This document shows, one piece after another, positions 7,584 through 22,946 of a DNA stretch of 64,000 bases. The notes below the pieces were generated by a model that was given only the letters and a program-made list of their open reading frames with translations, was not told where the DNA came from and ran no database searches. Source of the stretch: a virus (taxonomy: Duplodnaviria; Caudoviricetes); the IMG/VR virus record IMGVR_UViG_3300021429_002418, positions 1,708-65,707 of that record, one strand, 5' to 3'. Positions within the stretch are counted from its first letter, which is position 1, and the number at the start of each line of letters is the position of its first letter. A program made the translations under genes and the position numbers.

Positions 7584-7931
7584 ATGTCAAACACAGTTCG
7601 TATCGGCAAACAAAATCGCCATGAGAAAATCGCAGTCACTTTGCTATCCGGCAAACCAGTGTCACCAGAAGAAATCAGAGCCTGTTTTACAGGCACAGAC
7701 CAAGAATCGGTTCTATATCGATTGTCGACCAACATCTATAACATCCGAAAAGATGGTGGTGTTGTGAAGGTTCACAAAGAAGGTCGTAGTGTTAAGGCTT
7801 ATCAATTGGTTAACCACACCGAGTTCGATAAGAACGGCCGTTATATCAGCAAGTATAATGCTAAACAAACTGTAACACCAGTGACAACAGAATCAGTTGT
7901 TGAAACCGAGGCAACAGTTGAAGCAGTTTAA
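7584..7931 (+). CDS. hypothetical protein, possible winged helix-turn-helix
   Basis: SD AAGGA; helix-helix-helix then beta-hairpin pattern (LSTNIYNIRKDGGVVKVHKEGRSVKAYQLVN); fold is inference. Confidence 0.65.
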   Translation: MSNTVRIGKQNRHEKIAVTLLSGKPVSPEEIRACFTGTDQESVLYRLSTNIYNIRKDGGVVKVHKEGRSVKAYQLVNHTEFDKNGRYISKYNAKQTVTPVTTESVVETEATVEAV

Positions 7932-7935
7932 TCAT

Positions 7936-8157
7936 ATGAATGCTTGGGACCGTGACAATCTAGATTTCATTCTAGGTACAACGGAGGAAGGCTTCGACAT
8001 GTGGTTGAATCAGGCCGATGAAGATGACATTGAATATGCTCTTGAGTTGGTATACAAAGCGAAAGCTGCGTTTATCATAGAAGATATGGAACACAATGAT
8101 AATGTCATCATCTTAACTGAAGCAAAAAAATTGATTGATAGGATTAAAAATGTTTAA
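7936..8157 (+). CDS. hypothetical acidic protein
   Basis: in-frame ATG at 7936 after the upstream stop. Confidence 0.65.
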   Translation: MNAWDRDNLDFILGTTEEGFDMWLNQADEDDIEYALELVYKAKAAFIIEDMEHNDNVIILTEAKKLIDRIKNV

Positions 8158-8386
8158 GTATGTAAGTGTAGGTGTAACCTGTTTGGTTTTGTCTGCTTGT
8201 TCAACACCAAAGCTTGAAGGTTTTAACAAACCTAAAGTGATTGAGCGTGCTGAGGTAATTCAGTCATCTAAAGACTGTATCGATGCACGGTTGAGGCCGG
8301 TAATCCAAACATTGCCACAGAAGACGGAACATGGTACAATTATGTTTCCCGTATCGGTTCATTGTGAGTCGTATAGCCGTAAATAA
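8150..8386 (+). CDS. hypothetical lipoprotein-like protein
   Basis: signal-like N-terminus ending LSAC (lipobox-like). Confidence 0.6.
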   Translation: MFKYVSVGVTCLVLSACSTPKLEGFNKPKVIERAEVIQSSKDCIDARLRPVIQTLPQKTEHGTIMFPVSVHCESYSRK

Positions 8387-8398
8387 TAGGTGATTTGA

Positions 8399-8866
8399 AT
8401 GTTTTCAGGTATTTCTCAGAGTTCGTTGAATGTTGTAGCACTTGGCATTGTAGGTGTTTTCATTCTTGGTGCTATAATTTTTCTTTATTGGAAATATATT
8501 GCTGTTGGTGCTTTGGCTTTGTTTACTGTTGTTGTACTTGCAAACCAGTCATATGATAAAATTGTGGCCAATAAAGTTGAACCGCAGGTGATTGAACAAT
8601 TTATAATTGAACCACCAAAGGTTGTAGCAACACCAAAGAATGAACTTATAACCGAAGACTCTGAAGAAAAACCACTATTCATGGAAGATTGCCTGAGATT
8701 GACGGACTATACCGAAGAAAAGTGTGCAAAGATTTGGAACAAAATTCAAAGTCCTGATGTTGACCTGCTCGATGTTGAGAATGTTGAATACAAGAAACGG
8801 CGAGCAGAAGCACTGAAGAAACCTGGTGCCATTGTTGCTCAATTTACACTACAAGATAGGAAGTAA
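8399..8866 (+). CDS. hypothetical membrane protein
   Basis: two N-terminal hydrophobic segments; SD AGGTG. Confidence 0.7.
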   Translation: MFSGISQSSLNVVALGIVGVFILGAIIFLYWKYIAVGALALFTVVVLANQSYDKIVANKVEPQVIEQFIIEPPKVVATPKNELITEDSEEKPLFMEDCLRLTDYTEEKCAKIWNKIQSPDVDLLDVENVEYKKRRAEALKKPGAIVAQFTLQDRK

Positions 8867-8867
8867 T

Positions 8868-9227
8868 ATGATTAAGTTATATCGCGGCATCGTTGATATT
8901 CTATTAACACAATCGCGTGACATGGGTGGGCAGGTTAGCAAACACATCCGAGGTACTCTGACCAACAAGAATGTGGAAGAGAATGAAAATGGTACCACAG
9001 GAATATGGAACTTATTGCTCGAGGTAATCTTTTTGGTTTTTGGCCAATTGATCTTGCTTGTTGGACTTTCTATTGTTGCATCATTTGCAATTGTGTTTTT
9101 CCCAATGCAAGCTGTTTGGCGTGCTTTTATGGATATGACAAACTTTCGAACATCCTACAATAATATTGGTGAAAACCAACCGGTGAGTGTCGAACCAAAA
9201 TTAGACAAAAATACAACACAGGCTTGA
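8868..9227 (+). CDS. hypothetical membrane protein
   Basis: in-frame ATG at 8868; long central hydrophobic stretch. Confidence 0.65.
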   Translation: MIKLYRGIVDILLTQSRDMGGQVSKHIRGTLTNKNVEENENGTTGIWNLLLEVIFLVFGQLILLVGLSIVASFAIVFFPMQAVWRAFMDMTNFRTSYNNIGENQPVSVEPKLDKNTTQA

Positions 9228-9252
9228 CCTATATAAAAGTTTATGTTACAAT
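9224..9252 (+). promoter_or_regulatory. sigma70-type promoter
   Basis: TTGACC 9224-9229, 17 bp spacer, TACAAT 9247-9252. Confidence 0.6.
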
Positions 9253-9261
9253 GGAATCATT

Positions 9262-10185
9262 ATGAAAATCGCAATTTGTTCAGACCTACACCTAGAATTT
9301 GGTACAATCTCGCTTGAGAATACCGACCACGCAGATGTATTAATTTTATCAGGTGATATCTGTGTTGCAAAAGACATTCTCAAAAAGAATCAGGCTGATG
9401 TTGGATTCTCTAACCTACGCTCAGAAAAAATTCATTTATTTTTTGAAGAATGCTGTGCAAGATTTCCATATGTGGTATACATATTCGGTAACCATGAACA
9501 CTATAATGGTGATTTTAGCAACACTTTTGAACGTATCCGTGATTGCCTTGATTATCTACCTAATTTACACATTCTTGATAAGCAAGTTGTAACATTGGGT
9601 GATATCACTTTCATTGGTGGTACATTGTGGACTGATATGAATCGTGAAGATTCTATCACACTGATGCATATGACAAGCATGATGAATGATTTCCGTTGTG
9701 TTACTAACAGCAATCGTCAGGTGAATTACAAGGAGTTTGTGCCTGTAGATAAACCTGTTTTTATGACTGATGAAGAATGGTTGCAACAGCCTACTGAGGC
9801 ACGGCACAAACCTGTTTTCAAAACACGCGATGCCAAGTTTGCACCAGAAGATGCTGTGGTTGACCATCGTGAATTTTTGGAATATATCAAACTCATTGTT
9901 GAAGGTAAGCACGATCAAAAGTTTGTGGTGTGTGGTCATCATGCACCTAGCCGTGCCTCTACGCATCCAAGATATAAAGCTGATGAAATAATGAATGGTG
10001 GTTATAGTTCAGACTTATCTGAATTCATTTTGGATAGGCCACAGATTAAACTGTGGACACACGGACACACACATAACCCATTTGATTATGTGATTGGTAC
10101 GACACGGATTGTTTGTAATCCTCGTGGTTATATTGGTTATGAGCAGGAAGCTGATAACTTTGAATTGAAATTTGTTGAGGTGTAA
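9262..10185 (+). CDS. calcineurin-like metallophosphoesterase
   Basis: SDLH, SGD, GNHE, HH and GHTH motifs; CNPRGY end. Confidence 0.9.
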   Translation: MKIAICSDLHLEFGTISLENTDHADVLILSGDICVAKDILKKNQADVGFSNLRSEKIHLFFEECCARFPYVVYIFGNHEHYNGDFSNTFERIRDCLDYLPNLHILDKQVVTLGDITFIGGTLWTDMNREDSITLMHMTSMMNDFRCVTNSNRQVNYKEFVPVDKPVFMTDEEWLQQPTEARHKPVFKTRDAKFAPEDAVVDHREFLEYIKLIVEGKHDQKFVVCGHHAPSRASTHPRYKADEIMNGGYSSDLSEFILDRPQIKLWTHGHTHNPFDYVIGTTRIVCNPRGYIGYEQEADNFELKFVEV

Positions 10186-12511: not shown

Positions 12512-12811
12512 ATGTCACTATTCGTTGAAGTCAACTCTGTTGAAAAAGGTTGTCCAGTTATTATTAACCTGGATCTTGTTGTAGAAATTGTACCTCTTGC
12601 TGCTGGCGGTTGTGCTCTGTTCACCGCAGACAATGCTGGTGTAAATTCAAAAAGTGCTATGCGAGTAACCAATAGTTACGATGAATTCAAACAATTTGCA
12701 TTGCAACCAGTAAGTGTCGCAGATGTGCAACGCATCACAGCAGGCGCTTTAGGTAAAGTTAAAGAAACTAATAAATCAAAATCAGCCGAGTTGGAAATCC
12801 CAAAATTGTAA
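12512..12811 (+). CDS. hypothetical protein
   Basis: SD AAGGA, ATG at 12512. Confidence 0.7.
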   Translation: MSLFVEVNSVEKGCPVIINLDLVVEIVPLAAGGCALFTADNAGVNSKSAMRVTNSYDEFKQFALQPVSVADVQRITAGALGKVKETNKSKSAELEIPKL

Positions 12812-12818
12812 ATTACAA

Positions 12819-13109
12819 ATGATTATTGATTTATTCAAACCAACTATACAGTGGATATATGATGATTACAAAACTAACCCATTTCGTTTCGGAGTGGAAG
12901 TTCTGGCTTGGGCTATCAGTATTGGGTGCAGCATTACGATGGCTGCCACTGTCCCTAATCCACCTTTACTTGTACTTTATCCTATTTGGATTGCTGGTTG
13001 TTCTATGTATGCTTGGGCTAGTTATACTAGGAAATCATTTGGCATGTTGGCTAACTACATCTTGTTAGTCAGCATTGATACTATTGGTCTGATTCGGATG
13101 TTAATGTGA
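12819..13109 (+). CDS. small multi-pass membrane protein
   Basis: three hydrophobic segments. Confidence 0.7.
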   Translation: MIIDLFKPTIQWIYDDYKTNPFRFGVEVLAWAISIGCSITMAATVPNPPLLVLYPIWIAGCSMYAWASYTRKSFGMLANYILLVSIDTIGLIRMLM

Positions 13110-13351
13110 TTAATTTAACTAGTAAAAAAATTTACCCACCGACACCAACCCCGATTGCTATTGATTTTGTTAAACCATTATCATATCAATTTCAGGTTGC
13201 GGAGATTCTTGGTGATGATGGCCAAGTTGCAACAGTGAAACTTCAGGTTCAAATTTGGGAACATGATGAACTTGGTTACGGTGTAGTAAAACAAGGTTGG
13301 ACTGATGTGCCTCGGGTTAAATTTGATAAATACGGCGGAATGATAGTATGA
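13106..13351 (+). CDS. hypothetical protein
   Basis: packed ORF, GTG start overlapping the upstream stop. Confidence 0.6.
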   Translation: MINLTSKKIYPPTPTPIAIDFVKPLSYQFQVAEILGDDGQVATVKLQVQIWEHDELGYGVVKQGWTDVPRVKFDKYGGMIV

Positions 13352-13380
13352 ATATCACAATGAATTGAAATATTCAAAAT

Positions 13381-13388
13381 GATAAATA
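13381..13388 (+). promoter_or_regulatory. T4-type late promoter box (GATAAATA)
   Basis: variant of TATAAATA in an intergenic gap upstream of SD AAAGGAGA. Confidence 0.6.
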
Positions 13389-13410
13389 GTTGTAAGTAAA
13401 GGAGAAAATA

Positions 13411-13908
13411 ATGTTACCTACAACCAGAAAATCTGCTCAACAACAAGGTGAAAAATATTATTTTACAGGTAAACAATGTCCACAGGGACACACCAGTAAA
13501 AGATATTCTCATAATGGAGTTTGTTATGATTGTGTTATGATATCGAATAAACGTTGGTATGATAAAAATAAAACCGACATTGAATGGAGAAAAAAACGTT
13601 TATTTACTTCATTGATGAATCGAGCTATATCCAAACATATACCTTTTAATTTAGAATATTCGGACATTGAGTGGAACACCACTTGCCCCGTGTTTGGAAC
13701 TGTGTTACAATATGATTTAATTGACGGTCCGTATGATAACTCAGCATCTTTTGATAAAGTTGATCCAAAACTTGGTTATATCAAAGGTAATGTAAAAATT
13801 ATATCACACCGGGCAAATTGGTTAAAACAAGATTCTACAACTGAACAATTAGAATCAATAATTCGTTATATGAAAGAACACAATGAACATATTTTATCTA
13901 TCACATGA
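13411..13908 (+). mobile_element. free-standing HNH/His-Me-finger (homing) endonuclease
   Basis: N-terminal FTGKQCPQGH...CYDC zinc motif; C-terminal SFDKVDPKLGYIKGNVKIISHRANWLK beta-beta-alpha-Me pattern; overlaps the next gene by 26 bp. Confidence 0.7.
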
Positions 13909-14458
13909 TGTTAAAGAATGTGCAAAATTCCACAATGACCGTCACACAATAAAAATGATTCTAGAATATGCTCAACTTCTTTCTACTGCTCACCGTGTTC
14001 TTGATGGCACTTTGTCTGTTGGCCTCTCTAAAACTGGTCGTAAACAAACTAGATATGTTCTTCCTGACGGCCGTGAGTCTAAGCTCTATGTTGCTACTCA
14101 TATCAATCATCCTTCAGCAATATGGTGCAGGCAGTCTTATGCAAATTATGTTTGGTTGTCTAAACTGTTGACAGAATTGTGCCGTGAGTACACCTATCGT
14201 TATGGTAAAGTTCATAAAGTTGAAGCATCTGGTCTTGAAGAAGAATTGATGTATCCACCAATGAACATATCACCAGTTACAGTTCCATTCACAGAACCAA
14301 CACCTGCAATGCCAGATGAAGATAAAGTTCCAGGTGATTCTATAGCTTCATATCATAATTACTATATAAATAAAAAGACACATTTGGCCAAGTGGTCAGG
14401 TAAATATAATTCTCGAAATGTACCGGAGTGGTTCAATGCCAACTTATCAGTTTTTTAA
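13883..14458 (+). CDS. pyrimidine dimer DNA glycosylase/endonuclease V-like protein
   Basis: MNIFYLS...KMILEYAQLL...THINHPSAIW...NYVWL...EYTYRYGKVH...AMPD motifs. Confidence 0.75.
   Translation: MNIFYLSHDVKECAKFHNDRHTIKMILEYAQLLSTAHRVLDGTLSVGLSKTGRKQTRYVLPDGRESKLYVATHINHPSAIWCRQSYANYVWLSKLLTELCREYTYRYGKVHKVEASGLEEELMYPPMNISPVTVPFTEPTPAMPDEDKVPGDSIASYHNYYINKKTHLAKWSGKYNSRNVPEWFNANLSVF
14365..14372 (+). promoter_or_regulatory. T4-type late promoter box (TATAAATA), inside the upstream gene
   Basis: exact T4 late consensus upstream of the ATG at 14436. Confidence 0.45.
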
Positions 14459-14717
14459 TTCAAATACAAATGAAGTCGAAGAGCACATAATGAAAATTGC
14501 TCAGTATGATGAATTCAAACAAAACAATACACATCTTGAACGATACTTTAGTGTCGAGGGTCTTGCTGGACTTGGTGATGGAATGCGTATGAGTACACCA
14601 GGAACGGGTCAGGCAGACTCCACATTTGAGAAGTATATCATTAATCGAATGAAAGAAACCATACCCGGAAACACAATGAAGGCTGGCCACAAAACGAAAA
14701 TGTCGAGGGAGTGGTAA
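14436..14717 (+). CDS. conserved T4-like small protein (FmdB-like MPTYxF start)
   Basis: ATG at 14436 after GGAG; MPTYQF start. Confidence 0.7.
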   Translation: MPTYQFFNSNTNEVEEHIMKIAQYDEFKQNNTHLERYFSVEGLAGLGDGMRMSTPGTGQADSTFEKYIINRMKETIPGNTMKAGHKTKMSREW

Positions 14718-14893
14718 TGCCCCAAGTGCCAGCTTTATTTCTACCTAAAAAGAAACCTGATACACAGGTAAAAAACATAAAAAAGAATCGTAAGAAACTT
14801 CCTACTGATTCGGATAAAAAGACTTCTGCATTATTCAAAGGGAGAAATGATGGTTACCAAAAGATCAACGGCGAAGTATACGGAACAACATGA
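14711..14893 (+). CDS. hypothetical basic protein
   Basis: 60 aa ORF overlapping the phoH start by 47 bp. Confidence 0.35.
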   Translation: MVMPQVPALFLPKKKPDTQVKNIKKNRKKLPTDSDKKTSALFKGRNDGYQKINGEVYGTT

Positions 14894-15608: not shown

Positions 15609-15616
15609 TATAAATA
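15609..15616 (+). promoter_or_regulatory. T4-type late promoter box (TATAAATA) upstream of the radical SAM gene
   Basis: exact consensus in an intergenic gap. Confidence 0.7.
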
Positions 15617-15645: not shown

Positions 15646-17100
15646 ATGATTTTTGAAATCCAGGCCACAAAATTCGAAGATGGTGACACGAAGATGTTCA
15701 GTTATGATAACATGTCCAATGTATTGAAAGATGCTGATGGTAACATTTTTGAATATCCTGAAGATCAACGAACAGACAACTTCTTAAAACCATATAAGCC
15801 ATTTGATAAAAACCGACCACTGAAAAAAGCCAAGTTGATAAGTTGGTTGAAAATTCAAATGGGTTTGAGTTGTAACTATTCATGTGACTATTGCTCACAG
15901 AAGTTTGTTGAACGTCAACCTGAAACTTCCAAAAAAGATATCGATGTTTTTCTCGAAAAATTAGAAAACCTACATTTTGATGAAGATGTTGGACTAAAAA
16001 TTGAATTTTGGGGTGGCGAACCATTTGTTTATTGGAAAACAATGAAACCTTTGGCTGAAGCCATTGCAGAGAAATTTGATAGTTGGAAAACAAAGCCACA
16101 ATTTAGTGTCATCACAAATGGTTCAATTTTGACTGATGAAATTATTGATTGGTTGATGATGATGGACTTCTCTGTGTCTATATCACATGATGGTCCAGGA
16201 CAGTTTGTTCGTGGTCCTGATCCATTTGATGACCCAGAACAAAAAGAACGAATTCTTGGATTCTATAGAATGATGACAAGACTTGGAAAAAACATAAGCT
16301 TTAATTCCATGTTGAACGCTAAAAACCAAAGTAGAAAAGAAATTACTGATTGGTTTGTAAATTTAACAGGTGATAAGAATGTTAATTTAGGTGAAGGTTC
16401 TTTGGTTGATGCTTATGATGAAGATGGTATTTCAAATTCACTAATCACCAAACAGGACCATTTTAAATTTAGACAACGGTCATTTGGTGAATTGTACAGT
16501 GAAGGTCCAAATATTAGATTTATGGGCCAATTAGGTAAAGTCCAAGGATTAATTAATTCAATTTTAAACCACGATGAAGCAAAATATTTGGGACAAAAAT
16601 GTGGTATGGACGATGAACACACCATATCAGTTGACTTGCGCGGCAATGTTATGACATGCCAGAATGTGAGTTCATTGGAAATCTCCAAGAACGGTGAATC
16701 GCATCATGGCGGTACATTGGACGATTACTCAAATGTTGAATTGAAATCTGTCACACATTGGTCAAACCGAAAAGAATGTCCAGAGTGTCCAGTATTGCAT
16801 ATTTGCAAAGGTGCTTGTATGTTCTTGGATAAAAAGTTTTGGGACATTTCATGTGCTAATGCTTACTCAGACAATGTTGCACTATTTGCTGCTGCGTTTA
16901 CTATGGTGACAAATGGTTATATACCAACACTCATTAAAAGTGATACACTACCATTGGATAGACAAGATGTTTTTGGTACAATCTTCCAGCACGAAGAAGA
17001 AAAACAGAAAAAAATCATACCAATCAAGGTGGTTAACGAAATTATTGGTGTAGTCAATGAAATACCGGTGTATGGTAAATCACGATTAGAAACTTCATAA
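15646..17100 (+). CDS. radical SAM enzyme with C-terminal SPASM domain (peptide/protein maturase-like)
   Basis: CNYSCDYC (C76/C80/C83), FWGGEP, ITNGS, SISHDG; SPASM KCG...DLRGNVMTC and CPECPVLHICKGAC...C. Confidence 0.92.
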   Translation: MIFEIQATKFEDGDTKMFSYDNMSNVLKDADGNIFEYPEDQRTDNFLKPYKPFDKNRPLKKAKLISWLKIQMGLSCNYSCDYCSQKFVERQPETSKKDIDVFLEKLENLHFDEDVGLKIEFWGGEPFVYWKTMKPLAEAIAEKFDSWKTKPQFSVITNGSILTDEIIDWLMMMDFSVSISHDGPGQFVRGPDPFDDPEQKERILGFYRMMTRLGKNISFNSMLNAKNQSRKEITDWFVNLTGDKNVNLGEGSLVDAYDEDGISNSLITKQDHFKFRQRSFGELYSEGPNIRFMGQLGKVQGLINSILNHDEAKYLGQKCGMDDEHTISVDLRGNVMTCQNVSSLEISKNGESHHGGTLDDYSNVELKSVTHWSNRKECPECPVLHICKGACMFLDKKFWDISCANAYSDNVALFAAAFTMVTNGYIPTLIKSDTLPLDRQDVFGTIFQHEEEKQKKIIPIKVVNEIIGVVNEIPVYGKSRLETS

Positions 17101-17103
17101 ATA
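17096..17103 (+). promoter_or_regulatory. T4-type late promoter box (CATAAATA) upstream of the Asn-Cys protein
   Basis: same variant precedes gp48 (33423) and gp25 (39293). Confidence 0.65.
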
Positions 17104-17131: not shown

Positions 17132-18085
17132 ATGACAATAAAAAACTCAGGTTCATCATTAGGAGTTAGCGAAATCAACACGGAAATAGGCCGTGGTGCA
17201 GTAAATACCTCTTTAACTTTCCTCAACGGTTTTATGCTTCCAGCGCTGCGGCCGGCCGGGCCCGATGCGCCCGTAGCCACCAGCACAGCAAATGTCAATA
17301 AATTTTATGGTTTACAGTATTATCAAAAGAATAATGCTGGAAATTGTAACAATGCGAATGCCGGCAATTGTAACTGTAATAGCGGAAATGCGGCTTGCGG
17401 TCAATGTCAGAGTGCCGGTAGCCAAGCCCGGCAGTGCAATGCCACAAATAATTGTACAGCCATCAATTGTGCAAATTGTGATGCACAGAAATGGTTGCAA
17501 ACAGGTAATTGCAATGTCGGCGCAAATCCAGTATATAATTGCACCAGTAATCAAAATTGTTTTACCTTTAATTGTAATTGTTCAAAAATTATTTGTACAA
17601 AATTGTTTGATTTGGGTATGATGAAACAAAATATTTTTGAAGCCGATCAAGCATTTGGTGAACGTTTGATTAAAACTAATCCTGATATTTACAATGGATA
17701 TCGTGCATGGGCCGAAATTGTTGTTGACTGGATGGACGGCAAAGGTCCTAAAATGATGCCTTGGATGTCCGATGAAGACTTTGGTATAGCTGCTAAAAAA
17801 TGGTCAACAACATGGGCCTACGATATTGCAACACCATGGGCTGAAGAAATGGCTCACATTATGGGTGAGGATGAATCTGGCAGTCTGACGGGTAAAATGA
17901 TTATGGGTTTTGGTGTGCCAATTTGTAAGGTTGTCGGCGTCTGGCAGCGTTGGTTTGGGCCAAGTAAGAAAGAACCTGGTTTCATCAAAGGTGCAGGCCT
18001 TGTTATAATTTTTGTTATGTTTAAACTAGTTGCAGAACTTGGTCGTTTAATTGAAAGAATTATTCCAAAGAAAAAGGTGGCTTGA
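17132..18085 (+). CDS. Asn-Cys repeat protein; candidate substrate of the adjacent rSAM/SPASM enzyme
   Basis: 14 Cys in aa 72-150, 11 as NC and 2 as QC; N-terminus SG.SLG.SEINTEIG; separate C-terminal domain starting KIICTKL. Confidence 0.85.
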   Translation: MTIKNSGSSLGVSEINTEIGRGAVNTSLTFLNGFMLPALRPAGPDAPVATSTANVNKFYGLQYYQKNNAGNCNNANAGNCNCNSGNAACGQCQSAGSQARQCNATNNCTAINCANCDAQKWLQTGNCNVGANPVYNCTSNQNCFTFNCNCSKIICTKLFDLGMMKQNIFEADQAFGERLIKTNPDIYNGYRAWAEIVVDWMDGKGPKMMPWMSDEDFGIAAKKWSTTWAYDIATPWAEEMAHIMGEDESGSLTGKMIMGFGVPICKVVGVWQRWFGPSKKEPGFIKGAGLVIIFVMFKLVAELGRLIERIIPKKKVA

Positions 18086-18381
18086 TGGCAACATATACAA
18101 ATCAAAGACCAGTTAAAATAACAGCCGATGGCAATGATGAAAAATATTTTGGTGACCACGTAACACATTTTTTCAACACAACCAGTTACGAAATTATCAA
18201 TGCCCTTTCACAGGTTGACAAAGAAAGATTTTTTAAAATGTTGACTGACCATGAAAGTTTGATTCACAAGTTGTATGGTGAACCATCAACGAATTCTGTA
18301 CTTTTTTTACCGGCAAGTGCAAGAAAAAATATTAATAAAAAATTAATCAACGAATATAAAGTGTGGTTGGAGAAACAATGA
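18085..18381 (+). CDS. hypothetical protein, paralog A
   Basis: TGATG coupling; aligns by eye with 18378..18725. Confidence 0.7.
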   Translation: MATYTNQRPVKITADGNDEKYFGDHVTHFFNTTSYEIINALSQVDKERFFKMLTDHESLIHKLYGEPSTNSVLFLPASARKNINKKLINEYKVWLEKQ

Positions 18382-18725
18382 TAAACAGTTACACAACTAT
18401 GGAAACTTTTAAAGCATCTGACGGCAATATAATTATATATGATTTTAATTGTGTACATATTTTTTTAAAGAAAACTTTTGAAGAAAATTTCTTAAAGCTT
18501 TCAGATGAAGAAAAAAAAGAAACTTTTTATATTAGCCAAGAATATGCTGATTTACTAAAAAAATTGTTGGATGAGCCTCTTGGTGAAGATCGTGGAGACA
18601 TAAAAGAAGAATATGAATATTTTATTTCTACACCTAGAACTGACGTCATCGGTGGATCTGTATATGATATAAAAGCGGAAAGATTGAGACTACAAAAAGA
18701 ATGGTTGGAATCGCAAAATAACTAA
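18378..18725 (+). CDS. hypothetical protein, paralog B
   Basis: ATGA coupling; H.F..T..E...LS..K..F...L..KL..EP...WLE.Q pattern shared with paralog A. Confidence 0.7.
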   Translation: MINSYTTMETFKASDGNIIIYDFNCVHIFLKKTFEENFLKLSDEEKKETFYISQEYADLLKKLLDEPLGEDRGDIKEEYEYFISTPRTDVIGGSVYDIKAERLRLQKEWLESQNN

Positions 18726-18740
18726 TATCGGTTTTATATT

Positions 18741-19436
18741 ATGACAACAAAAGAAGATAGAGATAGATATCACTGGTATCAAAATGCACAGAATATGTTT
18801 TGGCAAAGTCCAATATGGGAAGAACAAACTCGCTTTGATGAGCAATTCAACGAAACTTTATTGGACGAAATCTACGGTATAGGTAAAGATATCGTATTGG
18901 GTAAAGACAAAGACCCAAACAATAGTATATGGGACTACAGTAGACCCAACTTAGATATACTAAAACAAGAAATTATAGATATTGTAACCAAGAAGATTGT
19001 ACAGAACATTCCACAATTGAGAATGTTAAACATTCGTGGTTGCGAACATTTCATGGGTTGGATTAATGTACGAGAACCAAATGAACGTTTGGAAGTACAT
19101 GGACACACCGAATCTGCAATTGCTGCAACATACTACATCAAAGCTAAGGAAGGGTGTGGAGACTTGGTGGCATTTGATTCCTCACATTCTATTGATTGGT
19201 TGAATAATAGGTTGAGTGGTAGTCCATTCATGCGTGAACGTAGATTTAAACCTGTCGAAGGTCGGTTAATTTTTTTCCCATCTTACGTTTTACATGGTGT
19301 TGATGAAAACAAATCGGATGACCTACGCATTTCACTATCAACTGACCTGAGAAAAGTGGTAGAAAAGGATGCATCAAATACTGTTATTCTGAAGAGCTGG
19401 GCCGGCCGTATGGCCAAAATTAAAGATTGGAAGTAA
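18741..19436 (+). CDS. Fe(II)/2-oxoglutarate-dependent oxygenase (TIGR02466-like)
   Basis: HGH..SAIAATYY, PVEGRLIFFPSYVLHGV, RISLS. Confidence 0.85.
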   Translation: MTTKEDRDRYHWYQNAQNMFWQSPIWEEQTRFDEQFNETLLDEIYGIGKDIVLGKDKDPNNSIWDYSRPNLDILKQEIIDIVTKKIVQNIPQLRMLNIRGCEHFMGWINVREPNERLEVHGHTESAIAATYYIKAKEGCGDLVAFDSSHSIDWLNNRLSGSPFMRERRFKPVEGRLIFFPSYVLHGVDENKSDDLRISLSTDLRKVVEKDASNTVILKSWAGRMAKIKDWK

Positions 19437-19966
19437 TGTTTATCAAACTGGAAAATACATTTGAAAAACCACTTTACGCAATTACTGATCCGCTAAAATC
19501 ATTTCAAGTCGAGGGTAAAGGCATTGACTATAAAAAGATATGGTCACCAGAAGCGGAAAAGATATATGGCATTTTACCAAAAAGGTACTGGCCAGATTTC
19601 CACTTGACAGTTATGACAATTGATTGTATAATCCCACCACATACAGACACAGAAATCATAACCTCAATTAATTTTTATCTCCAGACAGAAGGTTGCACAA
19701 CAACATTTTATAAGCCAAAGGTTGAGAAACCAAGAACGGTGCAAGTTAAAAATCAAACAAATGGTCATATATATTTTGAGGAAGATTTAGTTGAAGTTGA
19801 TAGTTTTGTGGCCAAAGATTTTGAAATTTGGTTACTTGATGTAAGTCGAATACATGGCGTTAAGGGTGAATTCAATTTGCGTAAAGCCATCACCTTAGGA
19901 ACTTTTGTTCATGGGTATGAGAACGTAATTCGGATGTTAAAGGAAACCAAAAATGTCATTTGTTAA
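19436..19966 (+). CDS. Fe(II)/2OG oxygenase-like cupin, paralog 1
   Basis: PPHTD...SINFY...LLDVSRIHGV...RKAITL (HxD...H...R); TAATG coupling. Confidence 0.75.
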   Translation: MFIKLENTFEKPLYAITDPLKSFQVEGKGIDYKKIWSPEAEKIYGILPKRYWPDFHLTVMTIDCIIPPHTDTEIITSINFYLQTEGCTTTFYKPKVEKPRTVQVKNQTNGHIYFEEDLVEVDSFVAKDFEIWLLDVSRIHGVKGEFNLRKAITLGTFVHGYENVIRMLKETKNVIC

Positions 19967-20621
19967 ATTAAAGAACCTTTATGAGTACATGCCTCACACA
20001 GTTATACCACGAGGACGAGCAGATTCGTTTGCCGGTAAATATGGTTTAGGTGTTAGACACAATACCATTTGGACACCAGAACCTGAATTGGAAAAATTGT
20101 ATAAGGTTATTCCGGAACGTTATCATAAAGATTTTCAGGTAACAAGAATGTCGATCAACAGTTTGTTGTTACCACATGTTGACAATGATTTTATAACCAC
20201 AATTAATTTTTATTATGAACCACAAAATTATAAAACTAACTTCTTTAAACCAAAAGAAGGAGTAAGTTCTTGGAAAACAGAAGAAGATAGGCACACAGAT
20301 GTTACAACTGAACGTATGGAAGAAAAAGATATAGATATAGAGGCACTAAAAACCCGTGTCAAAGAATTTGTATCAGAAAAACAAAATATGCCGACATGTG
20401 AAGATATCACATATGTTGACGCCGTTTATACATTTGATGATGTATATGAGATTGGTTGTTTTGTAGCTCAACCTAACGAAGCATATATGTTGGATGTTAG
20501 AGTGGCTCACAATGTTGAACCACTAGGTGAAGTTAAAATCAGAAAGGCTTTTTCTCTGAGAACTAGACATTATGATTACGGTCAAGTTTATGATATGTTA
20601 AAAGAAACTGGAAATTTATAA
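19953..20621 (+). CDS. Fe(II)/2OG oxygenase-like cupin, paralog 2
   Basis: LPHVD...TINFY...MLDVRVAHNV...RKAFSL; colinear with paralog 1. Confidence 0.75.
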   Translation: MSFVKLKNLYEYMPHTVIPRGRADSFAGKYGLGVRHNTIWTPEPELEKLYKVIPERYHKDFQVTRMSINSLLLPHVDNDFITTINFYYEPQNYKTNFFKPKEGVSSWKTEEDRHTDVTTERMEEKDIDIEALKTRVKEFVSEKQNMPTCEDITYVDAVYTFDDVYEIGCFVAQPNEAYMLDVRVAHNVEPLGEVKIRKAFSLRTRHYDYGQVYDMLKETGNL

Positions 20622-20631
20622 AGGACAAAAA

Positions 20632-21426
20632 ATGTTTTTTGAGAAATTAAACTACACGGTAAATATTGAAAAATTAAAAAACGAAGTTCGTGAAAGTGTT
20701 TTTACTTTGGGTGACCAAGTCATACAGGGTGAAGAATATGAAACACCAAAATATAATGGTTTTGGTGGATGGAGTTTATTGTGTAGAGAGGCCACATGGA
20801 CAGGTGGTTGGGAAGCAATTCAACTTGAACATGGACAATCACTGGAAAATTTTCTTCCAACAGAAGAATTGATATACAAAGCATATAAACACTTTAATAT
20901 TTCTCATGGATTGGAACATGATAAGCCAACTGAAGCTTATGTTGGTGAAATTAAAAAAGTACTGGATGACATACGCGAGATGGGGTTTCATCCTACAAGA
21001 GCCAGAGTGACTTGTTTAAAAGCACATTCAAAAAGTTTGGTACATAAAGATGCCAATGAAACTGAATATATGGCACGAATACACATACCGTTATGGACAA
21101 ACAAGAAATGTGTACATATTTGTCAAGGCAAGAATTTACATATGCCAGCCGATGGTGGTGTGTGGATTCTTTGGACAAATCAGTGGCATCAAATAAGAAA
21201 TGATTCCGATGAAGATAGATATCATATTATAATGGATGCATACGACACCAAAAAAATAACTAAATTTTTCAATTATGATGGTGAATTTGAACAATTAGAA
21301 AATTACGTAAGAGGTTATAGAGAAAAAATTGATTCTTCAGACTTAACTGAAGAGGACATTGATTTTTTTGAAGCCATTAGACAAAAATATGTCACCAAAA
21401 AAGTTAGAGACAACGAACTTATTTAA
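20632..21426 (+). CDS. aspartyl/asparaginyl beta-hydroxylase-like oxygenase
   Basis: RARVTCL...VHKD...RIHIPLWTN...HMPADG...WHQIRNDSDEDRYHII. Confidence 0.8.
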   Translation: MFFEKLNYTVNIEKLKNEVRESVFTLGDQVIQGEEYETPKYNGFGGWSLLCREATWTGGWEAIQLEHGQSLENFLPTEELIYKAYKHFNISHGLEHDKPTEAYVGEIKKVLDDIREMGFHPTRARVTCLKAHSKSLVHKDANETEYMARIHIPLWTNKKCVHICQGKNLHMPADGGVWILWTNQWHQIRNDSDEDRYHIIMDAYDTKKITKFFNYDGEFEQLENYVRGYREKIDSSDLTEEDIDFFEAIRQKYVTKKVRDNELI

Positions 21427-21428
21427 TT

Positions 21429-22946
21429 ATGATTGATACACACGGTATTATTTTTACCGGCATGGAAAGAACTAGAACAATTAGTCGACCAGCTGGTGCA
21501 GCAAGATTAAGAACAGTTTTAGACCAACATGGTTACAACATTGAGGTTGTTGACTATTTTGGTAATTTCACCGAAGAAGAAATAGAAACAGTTTGTGCTA
21601 GGTTTATTGGACCAAAAACTCTGTTTGTTGGTATCAGTATCACATTCATTTATGCATTCGATAAAATTAATTTTTTGTTTAATCATATCAGAGAAAAATA
21701 TCCTCATGTAAAAACATTAATTGGCGGAAATGAAACACCAATTGATGGTGTCGACCTATTGAAGGTTGATAGAGTATTCTGGGGTTATGCTGAGGAAGCG
21801 GTACTACACTATATTAAATTTTTAACCAAAAAGCGTTTGGATGATTTGAAGTGGGTTCCATATAGAGGTACATTGGCTATTAATGCCGAAATGATTTATA
21901 AAAACGATGATAGTGATTTGTCTATTAAATGGTTAGAAAGTGACCTGATTAAAAATAACTTTTTACCAATTGAAATTAGTCGCGGTTGCATTTTTAGATG
22001 TAGATTCTGTGCATTTCCGTTGTTGGGTAAAAAGAAAAATGACTATATTCGTCATGTTGATAATTTGTCAGCCGAACTAAGAAGAAATTATGAGATGTTT
22101 GGTGTCAATAACTATTGGTTCAATGATGACACCTTCAATGACAATGTTGTCAAACTAGAGTATGTTGCCGAAGCTATTGCAAAAAGTGGTGTTAAAATTA
22201 CATACACTGCATTTTTAAGAGCAGATTTGATTGAGAGATTTCCGGAAACTATTCCCATGTTGGCAGATACTGGATTGGTTGCTGCAACTTTTGGTTTGGA
22301 AACATTTCACCCCGAAGCAAAGAAAGCAATTGGAAAAGGTTTAGATAATGAAAGACAATTTGAAGCAATTCGAAAACTTAAAAAGTACAAACCAACTTAC
22401 ACATATACAGGTATGATTTGTGGTTTACCAGGTGAACCATTATCGAGCGTATACAATAGTCAAAAGATGTTAGTGGAACAAAATTTTGAAGTATTTGATA
22501 ATTGGGATTGGTGGCCTTTGGTAATCAGAAAAAATTCAGTAAGTCGGCTGAGTGAATTTGAAAAAGAATACGGCAAATGGGGTTACACTGAAATGATATC
22601 AGGTGAATATAACATATCTAAATATGATGACGATACAAGATACAACAATGATGATAGCAACTTGATGATGTGGAAAAATAAATATTTAAATTATTTTAGT
22701 GCCAGAACAATTGCGACCCTTTTGAATAAAGAGACTGAACAATTGCGGATCAAGGCCGGCAAATCAATCTATGGAAATGCTGACAAAGGTGTTAGTATCA
22801 ACCATGATGTGTATGAGTTGGTTGGTTTGGGAGTTGATGTGAAAGATATAATTGATGGAACATTTGATAAGTCTGCTTTAAATAGAAAAATTGAAGAAGC
22901 CGATCAAACCATCCTTGAATACAAAAAACTGAAGTTAGGATTATAA
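21429..22946 (+). CDS. radical SAM enzyme with B12-binding-like N-terminus (class B methyltransferase-like)
   Basis: IEISRGCIFRCRFC, DDTFN, GLETFHPE, ICGLPGE; N-terminal PAGAARL...GY.IEVVD...VGIS...IGG. Confidence 0.8.
   Translation: MIDTHGIIFTGMERTRTISRPAGAARLRTVLDQHGYNIEVVDYFGNFTEEEIETVCARFIGPKTLFVGISITFIYAFDKINFLFNHIREKYPHVKTLIGGNETPIDGVDLLKVDRVFWGYAEEAVLHYIKFLTKKRLDDLKWVPYRGTLAINAEMIYKNDDSDLSIKWLESDLIKNNFLPIEISRGCIFRCRFCAFPLLGKKKNDYIRHVDNLSAELRRNYEMFGVNNYWFNDDTFNDNVVKLEYVAEAIAKSGVKITYTAFLRADLIERFPETIPMLADTGLVAATFGLETFHPEAKKAIGKGLDNERQFEAIRKLKKYKPTYTYTGMICGLPGEPLSSVYNSQKMLVEQNFEVFDNWDWWPLVIRKNSVSRLSEFEKEYGKWGYTEMISGEYNISKYDDDTRYNNDDSNLMMWKNKYLNYFSARTIATLLNKETEQLRIKAGKSIYGNADKGVSINHDVYELVGLGVDVKDIIDGTFDKSALNRKIEEADQTILEYKKLKLGL

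Follow-up and report, generated by a model that had tools for sequence, protein, structure and literature searches.

A putative fibre-associated phage protein with an Asn-Cys core, the probable substrate of an adjacent radical SAM/SPASM enzyme

The closest described counterparts of the locus reported here are the ranthipeptide and sactipeptide systems (PapB/PapA freyrasin, NxxcB/NxxcA, CteB/SCIFF and CcpM), in which the gene for a radical S-adenosylmethionine (rSAM) enzyme that has a full SPASM domain adjoins that for a Cys-rich substrate containing repeated short motifs. One of these enzymes, NxxcB, reportedly links Cys to the beta-carbon of Asn within NxxC motifs. In another system, the rSAM/SPASM enzyme QhpD puts several Cys thioether cross-links into QhpC, a subunit that stays within a larger assembly. 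We analysed a 64,000-nucleotide stretch of viral DNA (the window; positions 1,708 to 65,707 of IMG/VR record IMGVR_UViG_3300021429_002418), taken from a 65.7-kb fragment of a T4-like marine phage, in which a 317-amino-acid (aa) open reading frame (ORF) designated P0001 (17132–18085, + strand) is encoded directly downstream of an rSAM/SPASM gene. The known substrates of such maturases are small secreted peptides and one bacterial enzyme subunit, and here this type of enzyme is paired with viral fibre-type structural proteins. Our reading, to which we assign a probability of roughly 60%, is that P0001 belongs to the virion, is associated with the fibre, has its Asn-Cys framework cross-linked by the adjacent rSAM enzyme and ends in a modular C-terminal assembly domain.

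The ranthipeptide and sactipeptide maturases are also the best NCBIfam and PDB relatives of the enzyme in the window, and the sequence NCNC contains what we take to be the NxxC spacing of the NxxcB substrate. Unlike those systems, the putative substrate here is a phage structural-type protein of 130–700 aa rather than a short secreted peptide, its N-terminal module is not a dedicated leader, neither a protease nor an exporter accompanies it, no recognition element (RRE) of the kind found with ribosomally made peptides that are modified after translation (RiPPs) was detected in the enzyme, and the enzyme scores far below all equivalog cutoffs. QhpD is likewise among the matches of the window enzyme (TIGR03906, E 1.7e-16), but with a score of 59.9 against a cutoff of 453, and QhpC differs in being a bacterial periplasmic enzyme subunit of another sequence family with Cys-Asp/Glu links. 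Among virions, the HK97 capsid is held together by an autocatalytic Lys-Asn isopeptide chainmail; the outcome proposed here, covalent cross-linking of a virion protein for stability, would be similar, whereas the proposed agent is a dedicated Fe-S enzyme that would act on a fibre-type protein instead of an autocatalytic reaction in a capsid. Cassettes of rSAM genes have been noted in the host-recognition cluster of pelagimyophages, with no function given (PMC7029224), and in the literature we found no description of the pairing of an rSAM enzyme with an Asn-Cys fibre protein or of fibre-tip modification by such a pairing.

Architecture of P0001 and linkage of its core to the rSAM gene

The stop-free translation of P0001 comprises three real, separable modules, an architecture put forward in the initial annotation of the locus and borne out here: an N-module (aa 1–65, MTIKNSGSSLGVSEINTEIG ... 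FYGLQYYQ; 17132–17326), an Asn-Cys framework core (aa 66–150; 17327–17581) and a C-terminal domain named after its KIICT motif (aa 151–317 with the stop codon; 17582–18085), all on the + strand. A script reproduced to the residue the Cys inventory given earlier for the core, which holds 14 Cys (72, 80, 82, 89, 92, 102, 108, 113, 116, 127, 137, 143, 148 and 150), preceded 11 times by Asn, twice by Gln (92 and 102) and once by Ala (89), with CNC at 80–82 and 148–150 and CxxC at 89–92 and 113–116; two further Cys lie at 155 and 265. Asn makes up 23 and Cys 14 of the 85 core residues, and at this Asn content (27%) the binomial probability that at least 11 of 14 Cys are preceded by Asn is ~9e-5. 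The abrupt switch described at KIICTKL is real, as judged from the distribution of Trp (eight of nine after aa 150) and from the jump in AlphaFold confidence from ~35–40 to ~90 at aa 151. FYG, given earlier as the end of the first module, occupies aa 58–60 and is followed by LQYYQ (aa 61–65). No family was assigned to P0001 by scans of Pfam, PHROGs and NCBIfam; an ESM Atlas search returned unnamed viral clusters only, a BFVD fold search with the full model returned uncharacterised phage proteins only, and tblastn against cultured phages matched only the KIICT domain of one cyanophage protein.

The distribution of the rSAM gene carries our reading of the core. In a sample blind to this gene, consisting of 80 viral loci fetched with patterns of the C-terminal domain only, all 48 loci that encode an N-module with an Asn-Cys core and have upstream DNA present contain an adjoining rSAM homologue (65–96% identical), whereas the gene is found in none of the 30 loci where KIICT follows poly-Gly, a Gly-rich domain or a Pro-rich linker. 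One locus, L040, has a 43%-identical rSAM 4 kb downstream of fibre-like genes with (NC)5-6 tails. Among the three parts of P0001, only the presence of the core tracks the rSAM gene. When viral loci were instead fetched with the rSAM, 77 of 80 were found to have an adjacent ORF with an N-module and a Cys-rich tract, the other three being cut by contig ends. The substrate gene lies downstream of the rSAM gene in the clade of the window and at a distance of ~1.5 kb in some loci; it immediately precedes the rSAM gene in a short clade, whose 129–173-aa proteins are without the C-terminal domain and whose loci have not retained the oxygenases that neighbour P0001. With gene order variable and the oxygenases not retained throughout, what is conserved is the pair of enzyme and Asn-Cys protein.

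The same pairing was observed in cultured phages and in bacterial genomes. The nearest rSAMs in cultured phages (43–46% identical) belong to Achromobacter phage JWF and Ralstonia phage RSP15, in both of which the gene is located within a tail-fibre cluster. In JWF, the fibre protein gp028 is encoded two genes from gp030, the gene of the 43%-identical rSAM, and ends in ...RQNCNCDCNCNCS, with NCNCDCNCNCS, which leads directly into a Hint domain (PF05203; 47.5 bits versus a cutoff of 32.1). A survey of bacterial contigs, with one genome per species, covered 80 loci with 35–67%-identical rSAMs; in about 60 of them a same-strand ORF 1–4 kb upstream of the rSAM gene ends in (NC)n, for example as ...NCNCNCACDCCC or as (NC)n followed by Hint. 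These loci derive mostly from metagenome-assembled genomes of Burkholderiales and include Limnohabitans, Burkholderia paludis and Ferrovibrio, and six of eight sampled ORFs score as tail fibres in PHROGs. Across 29 control loci (428 kb), no (NC)n tails occurred in real ORFs, the matches being short, antisense and spurious. Taken together, the viral and bacterial counts and the JWF cluster reveal a co-occurrence of core and rSAM gene beyond shared genome ancestry. Because this co-occurrence is strict across such distant contexts, the adjacent rSAM/SPASM enzyme very probably acts on the Asn-Cys part as its substrate, which upholds the substrate role first proposed from the window sequence.

In L040, three tandem small fibre-like paralogues (7707–9360 and 12728–14718) share the repeat NCYNCNCNCNC(NC), which is terminal in two of them and precedes the KIICT domain in the third; an rSAM/SPASM gene and a 2-oxoglutarate (2OG) oxygenase gene are located a few kb downstream.

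The enzyme itself (484 aa; 15646–17100, + strand), the probable maturase of the Asn-Cys protein, has the motifs of rSAM/SPASM peptide maturases. It matches Pfam Radical_SAM at 39.6 bits and the NCBIfam SPASM domain TIGR04085 at 32.7 bits (cutoff 27), and the three Cys of its CX3CX2C motif (C76, C80 and C83), together with seven SPASM Cys (C319, C338, C378, C381, C387, C391 and C403), are invariant in an alignment across four distant homologues. The best full-length NCBIfam models are those of PapB, geopeptide and CcpM maturases, QhpD and SCIFF-type maturases are also among the best profile matches, and of the relatives with solved structures 8vpo and CteB (5wgg) are closest in sequence. As the best maturase profiles all lie far below their equivalog cutoffs, the enzyme represents a separate, though related, subfamily of the peptide/protein cross-linking kind. 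Since its nearest characterised relatives install cross-links between a Cys sulfur and a carbon (thioethers), these would be, by analogy, its most likely product.

The adjacency of a Cys-rich tract to a SPASM maturase of the peptide-modifying kind, and the existence of the short-clade proteins, would also agree with a classical RiPP precursor composed of leader, core and follower, from which the core is excised and freed as a bioactive peptide with a toxin or signal function in infection. We regard such a precursor as extremely unlikely, as the N-module is also found on maturase-less proteins beside tail-fibre genes, and as no protease or transporter family is encoded by the ten neighbouring genes or conserved across loci. 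Furthermore, (NC)n tracts are also C-terminal on tail fibres of 300–700 aa, the fibre chaperone domain S74 is present on some homologues, and the core is a conserved framework that does not diversify.

Conservation and possible chemistry of the framework core

More than 450 homologues of P0001 were found in marine metagenomes, and the NC-rich Cys pattern is retained in hundreds of them, with conserved N-C pairs and a CD.Q.WLQ motif in the homologue alignments. In an alignment of 91 sequences, C72, C137, C148 and C150 are invariant and C102, C116 and C127 are conserved in at least 90% of the sequences. Mean pairwise identity amounts to 41% for aa 1–65, 55% for the core and 67% for aa 151–310. 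Within the core, a loop at aa 83–101 (17378–17434, + strand), delimited by alignment, varies in length from 6 to 20 aa and has a mean pairwise identity of 29%, as opposed to 64% for aa 102–150. These region-wise identities describe a conserved Cys framework with one variable loop and not a hypervariable core of the RiPP type, so that the hypervariability among homologues considered in the initial annotation was not found. C89 and C92, which form the AC pair and one of the QC pairs, lie in the length-variable loop and do not belong to the framework cysteines.

Over all loci we counted 110 distinct (xC)n runs, in which x is Asn in 68%, Ala in 17% and Asp in 8%; Asn is therefore not essential in these runs. 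The runs are followed by the end of the protein in 52 cases, by KIICT in 34, by Hint in three and by S74 in two, and the rest by short Cys-rich continuations. Two variants extend the range of architectures. In a 160-aa homologue with 29 Cys (L162, 6490–6972), the (xC)n tail takes an expanded form, with a CPVDCAC(N/D)C unit repeated at the end of the protein. In L155 (311–1405), an N-module, a long Gly-rich domain and an Asn-Cys core occur together on one protein, indicating that Gly-rich and Asn-Cys cassettes are stackable as well as swappable.

No confident monomer fold was predicted for the core, for which pLDDT (predicted local distance difference test score) ranged from 32 to 50 over two AlphaFold runs with 59- and 91-sequence alignments and was still 36–42 in the second of these, restricted to aa 1–152. 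Such low values would fit a fold dependent on cross-links, metal or oligomerisation and are evidence for none of them. In a comparison of the core profile with the PDB, a 'cytochrome c555 trimer' entry appeared with no passing stretch and no CxxCH, and was treated as a summed compositional artefact.

A domain that depends on a cofactor or on oligomerisation would be expected to give this result even with 91 sequences, and the principal alternative named in the initial annotation, a metal-binding or disulfide-knot role, is of this kind. In the form considered here, the core would be a metal-thiolate domain (Zn, Cu or Fe-S; metallothionein-like) or a disulfide knot formed after lysis in oxic seawater, and modification by the rSAM enzyme would be minor or different. 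CxC, CxxC and (xC)n all place Cys on one face of a strand, and the CxC faces could line the axis of a trimeric fibre, in the manner of the HxH iron sites that reportedly run along the axis of the T4 gp37 needle; the Ala and Asp tolerated at x point in the same direction. We consider this unlikely as the main role of the core, since it leaves unexplained the rSAM/SPASM gene beside every Asn-Cys protein or tail in phages that share little else, and no match to a metallothionein or other Cys-rich Pfam family was obtained. Metal binding and enzymatic cross-linking are, moreover, not mutually exclusive.

Terminal modules, partner gene and genomic setting

The N-module was characterised by profile–profile matching and by its neighbours in cultured phages. 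A profile of aa 1–62 aligned in hhalign with the N-terminus of rSAM-less Gly-rich/KIICT proteins (probability 94.9%, E 4e-8), and many cultured phages encode proteins that open with the module (LPxSGxI...E.G). Among them are Burkholderia phage JC1, Aeromonas phage ST4 and Ralstonia phage YL1, where no more than a few bases lie between the start of its gene and the end of a tail-fibre gene that ends in S74. The fibre-type character initially attributed to this start is thus supported. The module is predicted by AlphaFold2 (AF2) with a pLDDT of 65–75. Because it also occurs on proteins without a nearby rSAM gene, it is more likely to be a virion- or fibre-docking module than a dedicated, enzyme-specific leader; of the two roles first offered for it, docking is the likelier and enzyme recognition the less likely. 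Furthermore, in two homologues (L149 and L139) the core is followed by Peptidase_S74 (29–32 bits, cutoff 22), and these homologues match ~20 tail-fibre PHROGs. Homology and synteny with known fibre proteins were thereby established through the neighbours of the N-module, the S74-bearing homologues and a protein of cyanophage SynMITS9220M01 described below. The fibre of Burkholderia phage JC1 was considered as an rSAM-less Asn-Cys fibre and rejected, as it aligns with aa 54–223 of an S74-bearing homologue and is without the Cys-rich tract.

The KIICT domain was defined by AF2 and profile searches. AF2 predicts aa 151–310 as a six-helix bundle (pLDDT ~90), for which no significant fold match was found: a Foldseek search with the full P0001 model, a check proposed at the outset, gave a best PDB E value of 0.26, and a profile search of the PDB returned nothing. 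The best VIA-wide hits (Z 6.1, helical regions of SspH1/SlrP) were dismissed as within noise for helical bundles. The domain profile recovered 1,681 cluster representatives; among the 150 representatives listed, every complete protein has KIICT at its extreme C-terminus, the proteins being ~230–1,860 aa long and several of them carrying DUF4815 or Gly_rich_2. Most KIICT proteins have no Asn-Cys tract, and the domain retains 62–75% identity on otherwise unrelated proteins. KIICT also ends a protein of 616 aa whose gene comes after one annotated 'fiber protein' in the cultured cyanophage SynMITS9220M01. C155, A171, D172, Q173, G176, G189, Y190, W193, P235 and W236 are invariant. The domain is independent of the rSAM.

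The domain resembles Peptidase_S74 and Hint in sitting directly after the (xC)n tract, and S74 in being well conserved at the C-terminus of fibre-like proteins that differ widely in other respects. Hint directly follows the tract in JWF gp028, L181 and L172, and S74 in L149 and L139, so that the position of KIICT is taken in relatives by a self-cleaving domain or by nothing. Unlike S74 and Hint, for which alone self-cleavage is established, KIICT is all-helical, shares no sequence or fold match with them and is accompanied by a separate small partner gene: aa 151–317 gave no Pfam match to Peptidase_S74 (PF13884) and contain no SDxxxK motif, and no Hint or intein-like family match was found for this predicted helical bundle. 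An invariant Cys (C155) lies four residues into the domain. Because S74 and Hint self-cleave at the same position and half of the tails are terminal, KIICT is plausibly, by analogy, an assembly chaperone that is removed. This agrees with one of the two functions proposed earlier for the C-terminal domain, an autoprocessing chaperone, although membership in the S74 and Hint families was not supported; the other, a membrane anchor, is conceivable but less likely in view of one transmembrane-like helix and the observations that follow.

This helix belongs to the hydrophobic, basic-tailed C-terminus noted at first reading, which was confirmed (aa 283–301, Kyte–Doolittle 2.03 over 19 aa, then PKKKVA). 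P0001 might on these grounds be a non-virion protein anchored in the inner membrane by the last KIICT helix and active in superinfection exclusion or host takeover, with the small downstream protein as partner or antagonist; conserved Gly ~7 residues apart in the last helices, the dedicated partner gene and the location of P0001 outside the structural block of the window would fit such a role. We judge a membrane function highly improbable, however, as KIICT ends fibre-like proteins (with Gly_rich_2 or DUF4815, and the cyanophage protein after the 'fiber protein' gene), as many rSAM-linked Asn-Cys proteins are without KIICT, and as AF2 packs the hydrophobic helix into the bundle with a pLDDT of ~90; the helix also contains a near-invariant K298 and, in P0001, E302.

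Genes for tail fibres are known to be followed by small genes for assembly chaperones, as in T4 gp37/gp38 and gp57A and in lambda Stf/Tfa. The KIICT gene is similar in that its fibre-type C-terminal domain co-occurs with a small gene that comes next and is translationally coupled to it, and which, unlike those chaperones, showed no sequence similarity to the Tfa, gp38 or gp57A families in Pfam and PHROGs scans. In the window this partner gene (18085–18381, + strand; 98 aa from ATG) overlaps the stop codon of P0001 with its start (TGATG), and its family comprises ORFs of 57–99 aa downstream of KIICT genes. Of 125 KIICT genes, 101 have, no more than 400 nt downstream, an ORF matched by a hidden Markov model (HMM) of nine such ORFs, whatever the N-terminal part of the KIICT gene, and the HMM matched at no locus truly without KIICT, the ten apparent exceptions having variant KIICT motifs. 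In long-clade loci, partner homologues follow the P0001 homologue. A second small ORF (18378–18725, + strand) is a possible weak paralogue of the first (BLASTP, 25% identity over 96 aa, E 0.027); its position is conserved in related loci, and the partner HMM does not match it. Both small ORFs are acidic and translationally coupled.

Two further arrangements of KIICT were observed. In three loci (L036, L041 and L044, ~8696–9142), the KIICT gene and a 66–67-aa partner are followed by a separate 148-aa Gly-rich ORF. The called N-terminus of a metagenomic KIICT protein, P0101, resembles the C-terminal block of a Hint/intein (...THTYICEGLLSHN) and is followed by a Pro/Ala-rich linker and then KIICT; this gene call is possibly truncated.

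P0001 is part of a one-strand array that comprises phoH, the rSAM/SPASM gene, P0001, the two small ORFs, several Fe(II)/2OG-type oxygenase genes and a B12-type rSAM gene; the PhoH of the window is only 47% identical to cyanophage PhoH. Direct reading identified a CATAAATA box (17096–17103, + strand), T4 late-promoter-like with one mismatch, which overlaps the rSAM stop codon 28 nt upstream of the P0001 ATG, and a TATAAATA box at 15609–15616 upstream of the rSAM gene. Both boxes are late-promoter-like in sequence and may function as promoters. The 2OG, AspH-like and B12-rSAM genes (18741–22946) are syntenic only in the long clade and are absent from, or weakly matched in, short-clade loci, which places them outside the minimal unit of rSAM and Asn-Cys protein. 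Inspection of the core by eye for the EGF-type Asn-hydroxylation site C-x-[DN]-x4-[FY]-x-C-x-C gave no match, and as the AspH-like gene is also absent from short-clade loci, it is not tied to P0001.

Proposed assembly and significance

From the module boundaries, homologies and gene linkages observed above, we infer a virion location, thioether chemistry and C-terminal processing for P0001. The protein would be a late-expressed, fibre-associated virion protein of three exchangeable modules. Its N-module, common to small Gly-rich proteins next to tail-fibre genes, would dock; the Asn-Cys framework would be acted on by the rSAM/SPASM enzyme, whose gene lies immediately upstream and which most likely would install the thioether cross-links. 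Disulfides cannot form in the reducing cytoplasm, where virions are assembled. The cross-linked core could accordingly be pictured as a rigid scaffold independent of disulfides that presents one variable, possibly receptor-contacting loop. The KIICT domain and the small partner protein would serve as an assembly or registration module; like S74 and Hint at the same position in relatives, KIICT is probably removed from the mature particle or not needed there.

Several observations weigh against this proposal. The P0001 gene lies within the phoH/oxygenase block, and the baseplate and fibre genes come later in the window; in addition, a tblastn search of the cultured-phage collection found a full-length P0001 homologue in none of its members. 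Many of the linked loci are close relatives, so that the counts overstate the number of independent events, and RSP15 has a 46%-identical rSAM within its fibre cluster (L082, 5001–6341) with no (xC)n tail within 5 kb. The enzyme remains far below every NCBIfam equivalog cutoff (77.4 bits versus 340 for the PapB-type NF047865), a family scan revealed no RRE/PqqD-like recognition domain in it (E ≤ 0.01), and its reaction may be other than thioether formation. CxC runs are typical of metal-thiolate proteins too. Lastly, KIICT matched neither S74 nor Hint in Pfam and fold searches, and its last helix is hydrophobic enough for a membrane span.

A more general form of the proposal covers tailed phages of several lineages, among them marine T4-like myophages, freshwater Burkholderiales phages and prophages, and Achromobacter phage JWF. 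In these phages, a dedicated rSAM/SPASM enzyme would staple (Asn-Cys)n fibre ends by thioethers, after which KIICT, S74 or Hint would be removed, exposing the tip. We advance this generalisation tentatively and rate its chances at somewhat less than even; if true, it would constitute a class of enzymatic post-translational modification of virions not yet described.

The system of rSAM enzyme and Asn-Cys protein is widespread and abundant in marine and freshwater viromes. The KIICT domain with its small partner and the LPxSGxI...E.G N-module are two unnamed modules by which thousands of 'hypothetical' phage proteins can be annotated. If the modification is confirmed, it would represent a new chemistry of virion assembly, in which cross-links are made by an enzyme without an oxidising compartment, and would provide a compact, genetically encoded and hyper-stable scaffold with a variable loop. 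Furthermore, the 'radical SAM cassettes' noted where pelagimyophages encode host recognition (PMC7029224) would thereby acquire a function.

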